Made by a program: the position numbers and the translations under genes
NCBI RefSeq assembly: GCF_004010195.1
Contig: NC_057718.1
Span: 39,353,143 to 39,417,142, forward strand
DNA from: Chiloscyllium plagiosum
Lineage: Eukaryota
DNA length: 64,000 nt
Reading direction: 5' to 3'
The notes under the pieces: generated by a model
The model's database searches: none
Told to the model about the DNA's origin: nothing
The model's input: the letters and a program-made list of their open reading frames with translations, nothing else
Part shown: in pieces, positions 20,164 to 63,133 of the stretch
Layout of the letters: each line of letters starts with the position of its first letter
Numbering within the stretch: the first letter of the stretch is position 1

Positions 20164-20374
20164 CTGAAAATGTGTTGCTGGAAGAGCGCAGCAGGTCAAG
20201 CAGCATCCAAGGAGCAGGAGAATCGATGTTTTGGGCATGAGCCCATTCCTGAAGAAGGGCTCATGCCCGAAACGTCGATTCACCTGCTCCTTGGATGCTG
20301 ACTGACCTGCTGCACTTTTCCAGCAACACATTTTCAGCTCTCATCTCCAGCATCTGCAGTCCTCATTTTCTCCA
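20164..20374 (+). mobile_element. Non-autonomous Penelope-derived foldback element with hammerhead core
   Basis: ~80-nt inverted arms plus tail; 13-bp TSD AGAGTAGCAAAAT (20151-20163 / 20375-20387); CTGAAGA..GAAACGTC at 20249-20276. Confidence 0.88.
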
Positions 20375-20518
20375 AGAGTAGCAAAATAACTAATTTCCTA
20401 AACTTTACTTTCTCATTCCCTGACATCACTTAAATGTGATCATGGAAGGAATAGGTGGGCAACTGAAATACTGCTCAAGTGACAAGAAACTTTAGGAATG
20501 CATTTTGGTGGTAGGCAC

Positions 20519-20736
20519 TGTCGAGATTGTAATGAGATCAATCAGGTGAACCACATAGAATAGGAGTTCCCTGATTGGGGCTGTTAACCCTGGCTGACAG
20601 ATATAAACAGGAGTGTCAGACATCCTATTCATTCTGACTGCTGGCTCTGAGGAAGCTCGATCAGTGTCAAGTTCTATGCACATGTAAATAAAGGGCAACT
20701 TGGTGACGGGATACTGGCCTCTGTGAAGTTATTTCA
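20519..20736 (+). mobile_element. Solo LTR (218 bp)
   Basis: TG...CA termini; 5-bp TSD GGCAC (20514-20518 / 20737-20741); internal TATAAA then AATAAA. Confidence 0.85.
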
Positions 20737-21356
20737 GGCACCCCATCCCATTTTTCCAGCTTCACAGCTCCCATACTGCTTGCTAATAGAAACTTTTCTT
20801 GCCAAAATCTGGTTTAAATATCATCACTTGGAAATACTGGAAACTGGCCAGTCAATTACAATATTAGCATTGAGTGAATCTAATTGAAACAAAATGTATT
20901 TTAATGGTTCGTCTTGTTCATTTTACATATTTAAACATGTTGAGGAATCACCCAAATTAATTTAGGAAACATAATAAATATTGAAGCAGATTTTCATCTT
21001 TAATTGTGGGTCTAGGATCTGCCTGTTTTACAATTCATTGATTTCTATAAAAGGAGGATGCCTCATTCCACCAGATTGGCATATAAACAATTAATATGAA
21101 AGTCAACATCACTAATTCATTAATACACTGTAAGGTTCCAGTAAATTTCCAATTTTCTTCCTTCCTGTAGGCATGAGATATCACAGCTATGCCTCAATTG
21201 ACATCCACACAGAAGCACATTCTAGCAATAGCTGGATATCCTTAGCTGGATAACACTATGAATAAAAAGTCTTGACTTATTTTATTCATTGTTAGTCCAG
21301 AGCAGGAAAAACTTATAGCATCCATAGATTACAAAACAAAATGATCAGATACCAAC

Positions 21357-58662: not shown

Positions 58663-61600
58663 CACAGTACTGTATGAAGTCTTCAATTTAGCTCCAGACA
58701 TTCAGTTAGGGTCTGCGGAGGTGCAAAATTGCTCAGTGAGAGTTGAATTATCTTGGATGGTTTCCACATACGTGTGCTTGCCTAGATTTCCTCAGAATCC
58801 AAGGTACATTTTCAATACATGCCTGGTCTCCAGCGATGTAGCTGATTAAGTGAGGGCATTTTTGTATTCAGTTAAATTCTCTAGTGATTCTTGGATTCAC
58901 AGATTATATTTCAGTGATCAGCATCCAGTTTGACGTGTTAGTTCTCGTGTTCCAGTGCTGACTGCACCAGGTATTTCCAGGTACTCTCCCATCAAAGCAC
59001 TAATAAGACCAGAATCTGCTGATCTTCTGGGATTAGGTGAGTTCAACTATTTTCAAATGTACATGGCCATAGGCAAAATCTTTTTAATGTATTTAGTAAA
59101 TGCTTCTTTGAATCGCTTTAATGTGTCAAACAGGAATTCAGTCAGAATCTCCCATGTGGCAGGCAGGAACTCTACTGCTGAACTAGTGATGCTCCAATGC
59201 CACCTGGAAACACGCTGATAAAAGGTTAACAGAAAAACGCTTTTATTAAGCTACACAGGTACACAGCCATGCAGCTGGCTGGCAGGTATCACACACAGCC
59301 TGTATTCCAGGATAATAATGTATGTGTGCAGCAGCATTAAAAAAAAACATTTAAAGGATTGCATACAATGACAATAAGACATTCATAGCAACTAAATTTG
59401 AAAGGGAACATTTGTCACAGTATCTGATCTATTTGGCAACAGCAGAACATGACATCGTTAATATAACATGGGAATGTGAGAGAATGTGAAGGTGCTTTTT
59501 AGTTAAAAATCCAACTGGGGGAATTAAGGGCCAAATAAACCTGAAAATTGTGTGAGAATTATCTAGAAGATAGATAAAGGTAAAAACATTTGGTGAACCT
59601 TTCTTAATCCATAATTGTTTGGTAGTTGGCACAATGCAGCTGTCTCTGTTTGTTGCTATGATTTTCTTTGCCTGTATTATGGTGTATAGAATAGGTCAAA
59701 TGATGCTTAGAATAAAGGAACTTCTATAATATCTTTCACAGCTACCAAACATCAAAAAGCCAATATTTAAGACTACTGTGATGTCTGAAACACAGCAGCC
59801 AATCTGCACAGCAAGCTTCCAATAACTGCAATGTGATAACAAACAGATCATTTTTTAAAAATTGATTGAATTTGAACATTGATCCATACATCATGCATTG
59901 CTCACCTGCTCTTCCTCAAAATAGCGCCATGGAAAATTTTGTATTCATCGGAGAGACCAATGGGGTGCTGGTTTAAGTTAAGGCTCCAGTAGTACAGCAC
60001 TCCCTCAGTACAGCACTGGAATGTCAACCTCGATCTATGTGATCAAGTTCTGGAGTCAGCTTTGAATCCATAATCTTCTAACTCGAGGCAAAAATTCACT
60101 GTCAGCTAAACGACAGCTACCAGACCAAAGCAAATGGTTTGCAAAAGGTATGCCATGCTTAAAAGATGATGGCCTTTGGTAAGGCTATCTGAGGTCACCG
60201 CCCAGCTCAGTACCATCTCCATCATGCGGAGGAACGACCAGCAGAGCAATTAAAAGATCAGTGACCTCCTCTTCTGTACCATCAAATACCAGACTGCTAT
60301 CTGCCTTCCCACACTCACTCTGTTACTGCACACATCACCCAGAAAGGTTCATGTCCCAATAATGCACACAATATCTTCTCTCTCTTACTCTACTCTTCAG
60401 TATCTCAGACCACTAACCTTAAAGGACATCTGTGCTACCTCCCCAATCCTCCACTACATTTTATCACCTGTTCTCCACCTGCACCACCCGTGCCAATCAC
60501 TGTATTCACAATCGTTACTCTCCTTATTCTCACTGTCAGAGAAGATAGCCCATATCAGGGCGGGGAGATGTCACTTGGGTAAAGAGGTATCTGACATCAG
60601 GTTACTTCCCCATTGTGAGAAAGTTTAGCCCCTCACAGGAGAAGGCCTGGATCACTCCTGCAGTGATGCTGAAACATCTACTTCGCACCAAACCAGTAAA
60701 TAAACAGTTCATGCCACTGCTTCTCTTGCATTAATCTTTTTATCACTCACAATCATTGGACACCACTTCTAATCACTGACCGTAACACCTTCTCTCTCTT
60801 TTATTTGTCTTGCAGATGCTACTAGACTACCCTCGACCTCAATGTTGAAATGCCTAGCTCCACCAGAAGCCCTGTTCTCGATCACTGAGGTAGAGAGTAC
60901 AGAGGCCTCAGAAGAAGTATTGGCGAGGCCACCTCCGGCATCTCCCATCAAACCAGATCCTGACACCTTGGTGGAAATCGTCACAACAGAGTACACAATC
61001 TGGTGAGCATCTCACTGCGATAGTTCCACAGCTGGCCAAAGGAGAAATAATCCAGACAGCTAGCACTCAGAGGACTGCCAGAGACCAGCTACCTGCTGAG
61101 ACCCAAGCAGGAGAGCACCCTATGGAGGTGGATGTTAAGTGAATGAACACTAATAATAGAGTAGATAAGCATCCCTGAGCTGCAGACTAGTCCAGTTTGT
61201 GAGCTGGGTGTATGTCCCTGCGCACTAAGTACCTTTTGCAGCCATTGAACATAAATGGCTGATGCATTCTGCAATGCAGGTCTGCTCTCCCAGATCACTC
61301 TGCCCGTGTACAGTTGAAGTGGTCATTGACAATGTCAGTATCAATGTCCACAGAGGACAAGTGGAAGTGGCTGTTGCCCACGTATTTCATCCTGAGCTGT
61401 GTTGGTTGCAGACAATACGGAGGTGGTTCAGAGCAAACACCGATCTGAATTCACTAGGTACTCGCTCTGGTTTTCTTGTTGCGCTTGGTATAAATGGAAA
61501 TCTGAATATTAACGAGGCAAGTGATGGTGAGCTCACCACTGCCTAGCATAAAGTCATGCTATCCTGTTTGTGAAAAGCATTAAAGATGCAGCGAAATAAT

Positions 61601-61959
61601 GTCAACATTGAGATGGACCTCACTCCACTTCTCACCTGATTCTGCCACATATCATCCCAAAGTCCACATCACTTAGACCTCTGTAAGATTCCACCCAATG
61701 TTTCTACAGATTGACTTTGAATTCACTCCCTTATCATATCCTCTGCTTCTATTATTCTGCATGAACAGTGTTTTGATGTCAGACCCTCACTGACCTTGTA
61801 CAAATTTAGCTGAATCTTAAAACTGTGGCAAGATTAGACTATCACACGTGCAAATATTTCCCAAATGGGAAATACATATTTATATCAGTTCACCTTTGTA
61901 GGAAATATTCATCAGTTTTGCTTTTGGTATCACAGCACTCTCTATTAAAATATGCTTTT

Positions 61960-63133
61960 GGATGTAGGTTTGCTCGCTGAGCTGGGAGGATCATTTCCAG
62001 ATGTTTCATCACCCTACTAGGTAACATCTTCAGTGGGCCTCAGGCGAAGCAGTGTACATGATTCCTGCTTTCTATTTATATGTTTGGGTTTCTTTGGATT
62101 GGTGATGTCATTTCCTGTTCTTTTTCTCAGGGGATGGTAAATGGGGTCTAACTCGATGTGCTTGTTGATAGAGTTCTGGTTGGAATGCCATGCTTCTAGG
62201 AATTCTCGTGTGTGTCTCTGTTTGGTTTGTCCTAAAATAGATGTGATGTCCCAATTCAAGTGGTGTCCTTCCTTATCTGTATGTAAGGATACTAGTAAGA
62301 GAGGGTCATGTCGTTTTGTGGCTAGTTGGTGTTCATGTATCCTGGTGGCTAGTTTTCTGCCTGTTTGTCCAATGTAGTATTTGTTACAGTCCTTGCACGG
62401 TATTTTGTAAATGACATCAGTTTTGCTTGTTGTCTGTATAGGGTCTTTCAAGTTCATTAGCTGCTGTTTTAGTGTGTTGGTGGGTTTGTGGGCTACCATG
62501 ATGCCAAGGGGTCTGAGTAGCCTGGCAGTCATTTCCGAGATGTCAGACCTCTTGGCATCATGATAGCCCACAAACCCACTGACACACTAAAACAGCAGCT
62601 AATGAACTTGAAAGACCCTATACAGACAACAAGCAAAACTAATGTCATTTACAAAATACCGTGCAAGAACGGTCACAAACATTACATTGGACAAACAGGC
62701 AGAAAACTAGCCACCAAGATACGTGAACACCAATTAGCCACAAAACGGCATGGCCCTCTCTCACTAGTATCCTAACATACAGGAAAGGAAGGACCACTTC
62801 AACTGGGACAACACATCCATTTTAGGACAAAACAAACAGAGACACGGACGAGAATTCCTAGAAGCATGGCATTCCAACCAAAACTCTATCAACAAACACA
62901 TCGAGTTAGACCTCATCTACCATTCCCTGAGAAAAATAGGAAATGACATCACCAACACAAAGAAACCCAAACACATTAATAGAAAGCAGGAATCATGTAC
63001 ACTCCTTCACCTGAGGCCCACTAAAGATGTTACCTAGTAGGGTGATGAAACATCTGGAAATGAACCTTCCAGCTCAGCAAGCAAACCTACATCCAGAACC
63101 TCAACCTGAACTACAAATCTTCTCAAAACTCGC
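61960..63133. mobile_element. Third-family Penelope element forming a ~550-bp-arm palindrome; both arms encode GIY-YIG
   Basis: VIYKIPCKDCNKYYIGQTGRKLATRIHEH on both strands; arms ~61960-62510 / 62548-63094; 39-nt tail; 14-bp TSD TAAAATATGCTTTT (61946-61959 / 63134-63147). Confidence 0.93.

Follow-up and report, generated by a model that had tools for sequence, protein, structure and literature searches.

The window we analysed, a stretch of 64,000 nucleotides of the Chiloscyllium plagiosum genome (assembly GCF_004010195.1, contig NC_057718.1, positions 39,353,143 to 39,417,142), very probably holds seven 5'-truncated insertions of Penelope-like elements (PLEs) in the introns of the potassium channel gene KCNH1a. 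Each is flanked by a target site duplication (TSD) and carries the minimal hammerhead ribozyme (min-HHR) already known from PLEs, and their short and head-to-head forms are likely by-products of reverse transcription. The insertions are an ordinary, very abundant product of the PLE type and do not constitute a new kind of system. An earlier reading of the same stretch (the original prediction) had described about four unrelated families of hammerhead-bearing foldback elements that form a protein-less or endonuclease-remnant, retrozyme-like system mobilised in trans. Its insertions, its motif, and their place in the channel pre-mRNA are all borne out by our analysis; its unrelated families and its separate, retrozyme-like lineage are not.

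Seven insertions of four families

TSDs of 8-14 bp flank seven of seven insertions by direct reading of the window sequence, in agreement with the number first proposed. The insertions fall into four families, A to D, and are given here with a possible relic; positions are those of the window.

20164-20374, no strand assigned: family A foldback; hammerhead motif on the plus strand at 20249-20276; TSD AGAGTAGCAAAAT; the tail is on the complete arm, and the inverted arm stops inside helix II.
23061-23288, no strand assigned: family A foldback; intact motifs at 23124-23151 (minus) and 23161-23188 (plus); TSD GGTAATCTATTCAA; the tail is on the right, and the arms of 96 nt, 99% complementary, lie at 23057-23152 and 23160-23255.
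40316-40410, plus strand: family A leader unit, solo and 95 nt long, lacking both inverted arm and tail; TSD AAGTTGTTAAA; it starts 3 nt upstream of the core, and helix III is ACAT in this copy.
47321-47692, minus strand: family B solo copy with a tail; intact motif at 47421-47448 (minus); TSD CTAYAAAAAAT; the 5' truncation falls inside the endonuclease coding region.
48204-48398, no strand assigned: family C foldback with a tail; motif at 48281-48309 (plus); TSD TTGTTTAAGAAA; helix II is GGAG/CUCC, and the AGCU helix III is changed in this copy.
52695-53376, no strand assigned: family B head-to-head unit; intact motif at 52799-52826 (minus); TSD ATAGGAAA; the tail and the intact motif are on the short left arm, the endonuclease remnant is on the long right arm, and the right-arm motif at 53283-53310 (plus) is changed downstream of GAAAC.
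61960-63133, no strand assigned: family D head-to-head unit; motif at 61994-62033 (minus); TSD TAAAATATGCTTTT; arms of ~560 nt at 92% identity, a GIY-YIG remnant in both, and the tail on the right; the motif copy of the plus arm, near 63020, has a changed first box.
244-263, minus strand: possible relic with the CTGATGA and GAAA boxes and without helix II.

The foldback, or head-to-head, form accounts for five of the seven insertions, and each of the five has a tail of 30-40 nt at one end only. The plan that had been proposed as common, a truncated inverted copy joined to a complete copy and a 30-40-nt tail, is the plan of these five. The inverted arms measured 96 nt (99%), 81 nt (91%), 63 nt (83%), 111 nt (94%), and ~560 nt (92%). 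Searched by local BLAST with the four unit types, the window yielded no additional copies. Local BLAST also aligned families A and B at 78-86% identity from the core through ~80-125 nt of the leader; the two families are therefore related, contrary to the view that all four were independent. The relic placed near position 234 survives in part, as both boxes are present at 244-263 but helix II is missing. It resembles a fifth hammerhead type that we met once, in locus L040, where a hammerhead variant with helix II AGCA/UGCU lies on the minus strand near 228.

Two of the families, B and D, carry the endonuclease remnants that had been anticipated. Family B copies hold the end of the endonuclease reading frame. 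Three separate fragments, namely both family D arms and one longer family B copy elsewhere in the genome, match positions 3-36 of the PF01541 profile with E = 2e-4, 1e-3, and 3e-3, just under the cut-off. The closest named relatives of the endonuclease fragment are uncharacterised proteins of a bamboo shark, and its longer relatives carry RVT_1 (PF00078) with PF28514 and PF26215, some of them also GIY-YIG (PF01541). Open frames of 927-1352 amino acids were considered as an autonomous partner and rejected as masking artefacts, being runs of N in L073, L074, and L075 (contigs C99425, C1, and C36).

The architecture of the insertions reads as the published PLE form. Two accounts (PMC8557442, PMC3846280) describe an inverted 5'-truncated copy abutting a direct copy, with a 30-40-bp tail on one end. 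The insertions here share the inverted copy, the one-ended tail, the short and variable TSDs, and the heavy 5' truncation with those accounts, as well as a putative transcription start and an initiator-like motif in the terminal repeat. They differ in that most family A copies are leader only and end 0-6 nt before the core, and in a recurrent extra G at the 5' end. Since both the motif and the architecture are known, the kind is already known. By their sequences, families A-D are new, and our literature search found no paper describing these four families.

These families are very abundant. The 32-nt A/B hammerhead word CTGAWGAAGGGCNNNNGCCCGAAACGTCGATT has 63,644 exact copies in the 3.56-Gb genome, 46,222 of them in family A, while the reversed control has 0. 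First-look candidates number at least 2,949 for family C, at least 4,542 for family D, and at least 50,603 for the endonuclease remnant. With the 23061 foldback as query, we recovered 30 copies of full length; identity was 90-100%, and every one had a TSD of its own. Words of 31 letters sampled from the family A unit also turned up in runs under eight organism labels from ten studies, and the family B copy is likewise covered by contigs under a second label. The families are probably common to several related species.

A minimal hammerhead of the PLE type

The pattern CTGAWGA-N(4-30)-GAAA has 15 matches in the window against 4.83 +/- 2.18 expected, and 0 of 100 shuffles reach 15. Eleven of the 15 matches, at 10 sites, fall in the insertions named by the original prediction; the other four (27679, 33832, 52361, and 55038) lack helix II and are at chance level. 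Pattern count and direct reading agree that a common motif, CUGANGA / helix II / GAAA / CG or GC / U-H, is present in all seven insertions. A descriptor scan of 610,859 nt gave 177 matches against 0 in the reversed sequence, a number that is not a density since the loci scanned were selected via these families. A chance motif is ruled out by the shuffles, the reversed-word genome control, and the reversed descriptor scan.

Unaltered genomic copies read CUGA(A/U)GA-A-GGGC-loop-GCCC-GAAA-CG-UC/GAUU in families A and B, CUGAUGA-A-GGAGC-AGC-GCUCC-GAAA-GC-UA/GUGC in family C, and CUGAAGA-U-GUUACC(U)-loop-(G)GGUGAC-GAAA-CG-UC/UGGA in family D. Families A, B, C, and D thus all have the two boxes, CUGANGA and GAAA, with U and then H next at the cleavage site, and several window copies depart from the family motifs at CpG positions. 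An extra nucleotide follows A9 in 176 of the 177 descriptor matches (A in families A, B, and C; U in D), and the G-C closing pair (G10.1-C11.1) occurs in unaltered copies of four different helices. Helix II has 4-7 bp in the four families and, on inspection of the sequences, varies compensatorily between them (GGGC/GCCC, GGAGC/GCUCC, GUUACCU/GGGUGAC, and GUUACCU/AGGUAAU). Positions 15.2-16.2 form a palindrome, ACGU in families A, B, and D and AGCU in family C. The GUUACCU/AGGUAAU helix belongs to a family D-like variant in locus L082 (plus strand, near 1897), in which two G-U pairs have become A-U.

As read from these copies, the motif fits the published definition of the minimal PLE hammerhead, a kind known since 2014, and the identification of a PLE-type minimal type I hammerhead with a palindromic ACGU/AGCU helix III holds for the boxes, the pair, and the palindrome alike. 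Small dimeric PLE-associated hammerhead variants, with a helix III too short for the monomer to fold, were reportedly described by Lunse, Weinberg, and Breaker in 2017; the motif here has both traits too. The min-HHRs of PLE terminal repeats combine the G10.1-C11.1 pair with the extra nucleotide and a palindrome at 15.2-16.2, and occur as opposite-strand pairs 100-700 bp apart, with examples from fish, coelacanth, and Xenopus (PMC4209133). Compared with the min-HHRs of metazoan PLEs (Cervera and De la Pena 2014, PMC4209133), the motifs here have the same CUGANGA and GAAA boxes and G10.1-C11.1 pair, and the same absence of helix III save for the palindromic CG or GC at 15.2-16.2. Helix I is short in both, though at only 2-3 bp here it fits less clearly. 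They also share the place near the element end and the thousands of mostly solitary copies with opposite-strand pairs. The scale is different, with 63,644 exact copies of one word here against ~4,000 motifs in coelacanth and ~9,000 in Xenopus in that paper.

Origin of the short and head-to-head forms

How did the short and head-to-head forms arise? The 5' ends of the copies pile up 0-6 nt before the core, at an initiator-like sequence (TCA+1TTCC in family A, TTA+1TTCC in family B), and DNA contigs of other runs also break at 47451-47453, the position of this hot spot. Long copies of family C have C-ACAACC at the 5' end. Among the first 100 of 1,816 non-C copies of this family, counted by hand, the base before ACAACC is G in 60, T in 28, and A in 12 (binomial p = 3e-11 against 28%); the background of G is 21%. 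Twenty G-ACAACC copies that we fetched comprised 14 foldbacks, with partner arms stopping at many points, and six solos, and the extra G lies outside the TSD in both solos with a readable TSD (L212 and L222). Our analysis suggests that the extra, untemplated G is likely a copy of the RNA cap. A cap-copied G at the 5' end is known for other retroelements. One loose literature search found no PLE paper that mentions such an extra G. Transcription is recorded as starting inside the terminal repeat in D. virilis Penelope and in a Chlamys element (PMC8557442), and a rotifer terminal repeat contains an Inr-like motif (PMC3846280).

We propose the following mechanism. The element RNA would start at the initiator-like site just before the hammerhead and be capped. 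Reverse transcription would begin at one of two internal sites, ~90 or ~125 nt downstream, and the tail would be the segment that separates them; with start sites so close to the 5' end, a unit-length capped RNA would as template yield the leader only, and longer copies would depend on RNA that reads through from a unit upstream. Priming would occur on both strands of the staggered cut, and the second cDNA would jump to the 3' end of the first. The result would be a head-to-head unit in which the complete arm begins with G and the partner arm varies in length. The window copies would be dead on arrival. The proposal predicts a ribozyme within the first 40 nt of a capped RNA. A bolder reading, which we regard as rather improbable, puts the hammerhead right at the 5' terminus of the capped PLE transcript; most priming events would then copy nothing but the leader, as a 'strong-stop-like' cDNA that would explain tens of thousands of leader-only inserts. 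In that case the palindromic helix III would act mainly to pair two template RNAs rather than in cutting, and a dimeric enzyme could copy the pair from either side of a single staggered cut to give head-to-head units with one tail.

There is biochemical precedent for several of these steps. The purified protein of the anole PLE Poseidon cuts and extends both target strands, its reverse transcription starts at two internal sites that bracket the tail, and hammerhead cleavage is not required (PMC11167929). Extension of both strands and two internal start sites are features that the mechanism proposed here shares with Poseidon. Our sample for the genome at large was unbiased, comprising the first 94 intact A/B hammerheads along contig 1 (its first 3.3 Mb), which represent 89 insertions. 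One tail was present in 23 of 26 distinct foldbacks, two in 2, and none in 1, and 32 of the 63 solos had a tail.

Alternatively, the head-to-head form might come from self-priming, with a single cDNA or an antisense template snapping back on itself, an origin suggested for rotifer PLEs that we regard as unlikely here. It is consistent with the foldback junctions, which show palindromes and re-copied arm pieces. However, snap-back priming should run back through the whole first strand and give equal arms, and here one arm is complete and its partner stops at many different positions. Nor does it accommodate a tail at one end only in 23 of 26 foldbacks, or the extension of both strands by purified PLE protein in vitro (PMC11167929).

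Are the short units a lineage of their own? Units of ~95-130 nt could be self-sustaining in the manner of short interspersed elements or retrozymes, with their own internal promoter, and be moved in trans by PLE enzymes. Of the 63 sampled family A copies, 41 stop 0-6 nt before the core and 22 extend 28-437 nt; of the 31 family B copies, 11 stop 0-8 nt before it and 20 extend 12-360 nt. This excess of short forms in family A would fit a separate lineage, as would other loci that hold copies 100% identical over 227 nt. For mobilisation in trans, the terminal repeats of PLEs reportedly suffice in cis (PMC3846280), and a 2026 preprint (10.64898/2026.07.22.740005) argues for an origin of animal non-LTR (long terminal repeat) retrozymes in PLE terminal repeats. 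On the other hand, short and long forms occur at similar ratios in the three main loop subfamilies (TTAT 30:15, TCAT 5:4, TAAT 4:2), and a separate non-autonomous lineage is therefore unsupported. Even the TAAT subfamily, to which the youngest copy of the window belongs, has long forms; a short lineage confined to TAAT was rejected for the same reason, since long TAAT forms exist among the listed copies. Foldback centres also differ between near-identical copies, with 18 different centres among the 22 parsed of 30 such copies, several with re-copied arm pieces, which indicates that every insertion builds its mirror half afresh. The short units look like by-products made anew at each insertion from the same source elements, and a protein-less lineage mobilised in trans, as first proposed, is rather improbable.

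The likeness to retrozymes is similarly limited. According to two sources (PMC7229834 and 10.64898/2026.07.22.740005, the latter sampling one cartilaginous fish for retrozymes), animal non-LTR retrozymes have the same type I hammerheads without coding capacity, the same kinship with PLE terminal repeats, and the same dependence on PLE enzymes. However, retrozymes stand in tandem as direct repeats, from which cleavage at two ribozymes releases a unit that is circularised, whereas the units here are scattered, each between TSDs, and occur singly or head-to-head, with no more than one ribozyme per strand. In the 94-hammerhead sample, neighbours on opposite strands and no more than 1.5 kb apart are head-to-head in 19 cases and tail-to-tail in 2, counts in which overlapping loci may be doubled. 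Among the 3 of 11 same-strand neighbours inspected there was no tandem pair able to release a circularisable monomer; two were separate insertions, and one was a loose-pattern match beside a foldback. As no tandem same-strand pair was found among those inspected, the units do not look retrozyme-like.

Several observations weigh against the reading of these insertions as min-HHR-bearing PLE by-products copied from capped RNA. Helix I has only 2-3 bp in all four families (UC/GA and one more pair in A and B, CAC/GUG in C, CCA/UGG in D), a length similar to the 2 bp reported for D. virilis and short of the 4-5 bp of Schistosoma (PMC4209133). The Rfam search proposed with the original prediction found no hammerhead match in the whole window at gathering score, or in 20000-24000 at E up to 10. 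No match is expected because the motif is without helix III, and no curated model supports the hammerhead motif. The reverse transcriptase parts of three fetched long copies are N, leaving the autonomous partner to be deduced only from the precomputed domains of relatives. In family A the base before ATTCC is G in 57 cases, A in 27, and T in 16 (hand count; 17,743 in all), a count confounded by foldback centres such as CAGG/ATTCC, and the extra G might have been added by the enzyme without a template instead of being copied from a cap. One single-cell polyA RNA run, from a library unsuited to 5' ends, showed no pile of starts or ends, position -4 included; in the same run element reads went in both directions, and 97% continued into unlike sequence. 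Self-priming on antisense templates, proposed for palindromic junctions (PMC3846280), may also fit our data. Finally, short copies prevail in family A and long ones in family B (Fisher p = 0.008), a difference that a simple by-product model leaves unaccounted for.

KCNH1a and other features of the window

We mapped the host gene by tblastn of a named shark KCNH1a protein against the window, which identified six exons covering residues ~50-474.

15587-16099, minus strand: KCNH1a exon, residues ~304-474; tblastn, Pfam Ion_trans/Ion_trans_2, and PDB KCNH1 at 4.5e-79.
21357-21755, minus strand: KCNH1a exon, residues ~183-315; tblastn, Pfam, and PDB; 99% identity to cartilaginous-fish KCNH1a.
29608-29730, minus strand: KCNH1a exon, residues ~145-185; tblastn.
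37731-37898, minus strand: KCNH1a exon, residues ~89-145, the end of the PAS domain; tblastn, Pfam, and PDB.
44527-44637, minus strand: KCNH1a exon, residues ~65-101; tblastn.
63947-64000, minus strand: KCNH1a exon, residues ~50-67, cut by the window end; tblastn.

Given these six minus-strand exons, all seven insertions lie in KCNH1a introns, which confirms their predicted position inside a K+ channel pre-mRNA. The cores at 23124-23151, 47421-47448, and 52799-52826 are intact and on the minus strand, as is KCNH1a, and so in the sense of the host gene. KCNH5 was considered as the host gene and rejected: PDB scores are close for two exons, but the PAS exon favours KCNH1a (82 against 69 bits), and so do the named relatives.

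Could these sense cores cleave the KCNH1 pre-mRNA and affect the host gene? All three are intact, intronic, and in gene sense, and two family B copies 5.4 kb apart in one intron could in principle pair via ACGU. However, in gene sense the 23061 unit is predicted to fold into a single 96-bp hairpin (-207.2 kcal/mol, z = -25) with both cores paired to their antisense copies, in line with the suggestion that foldback cores would be silenced by their own antisense arm. For the 47321 solo copy, helix II forms in the predicted fold, and the overall fold is ordinary (z = -1.8). Minimal PLE hammerheads showed no cleavage as monomers and little as dimers (PMC4209133), and the anole ribozyme cleaves only with the element protein, no public RNA reads ending at its site (PMC11167929). 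The single-cell polyA run showed no pile of read ends either, in a library unsuited to showing them. Moreover, the genome has at least 63,644 intact copies, and efficient intronic cleavage would therefore be strongly counter-selected. Cutting of the KCNH1 pre-mRNA by these motifs thus appears unlikely, and an effect of such cutting on the host gene is highly improbable.

The foldback centre at 23125-23187 scored on both strands with two microRNA models, mir-4662 at 48.8 bits (gathering 97) and mir-665 at 39.6 bits (gathering 52). Near-perfect intronic hairpins can mimic microRNA precursors in covariance-model scans.

The window contains other features. An inverted repeat of 289 nt, 81% complementary, has its arms at 49495-49783 and 50870-51158, 1086 nt apart, and a second pair at 50522-50579 and 50874-50931 is related to it; the repeat at 49495-51158 is probably another transposon outside the four PLE families. 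Sub-threshold RVT_1 fragments, all on the plus strand, lie at 9789-10468, 48769-48990, and 56823-57050 and are most likely remnants of long interspersed nuclear elements. The family C foldback at 48204 appears to sit within one of them. A tRNA-Asn(GTT) gene or tRNA-derived repeat head at 17640-17715 (plus; 65.9 bits to Rfam tRNA) runs antisense to KCNH1a, in the intron flanked by the exons at 21357 and 16099. An open frame at 24922-25326 (plus) matches Pfam ALKBH8_N at E = 3.7e-7, which passes the cut-off, and lies in a KCNH1a intron on the strand opposite to the gene.

What do these insertions tell us about PLEs? With tens of thousands of young copies, this one genome is a large natural record of PLE insertion events. 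The 5' ends, the extra G, the varying centres, and the one-sided tails can be read as footprints of steps that have so far been seen only in vitro with one lizard element. The predicted place of the ribozyme, within the first 40 nt of a capped RNA, bears on what the hammerheads of PLEs may be for.

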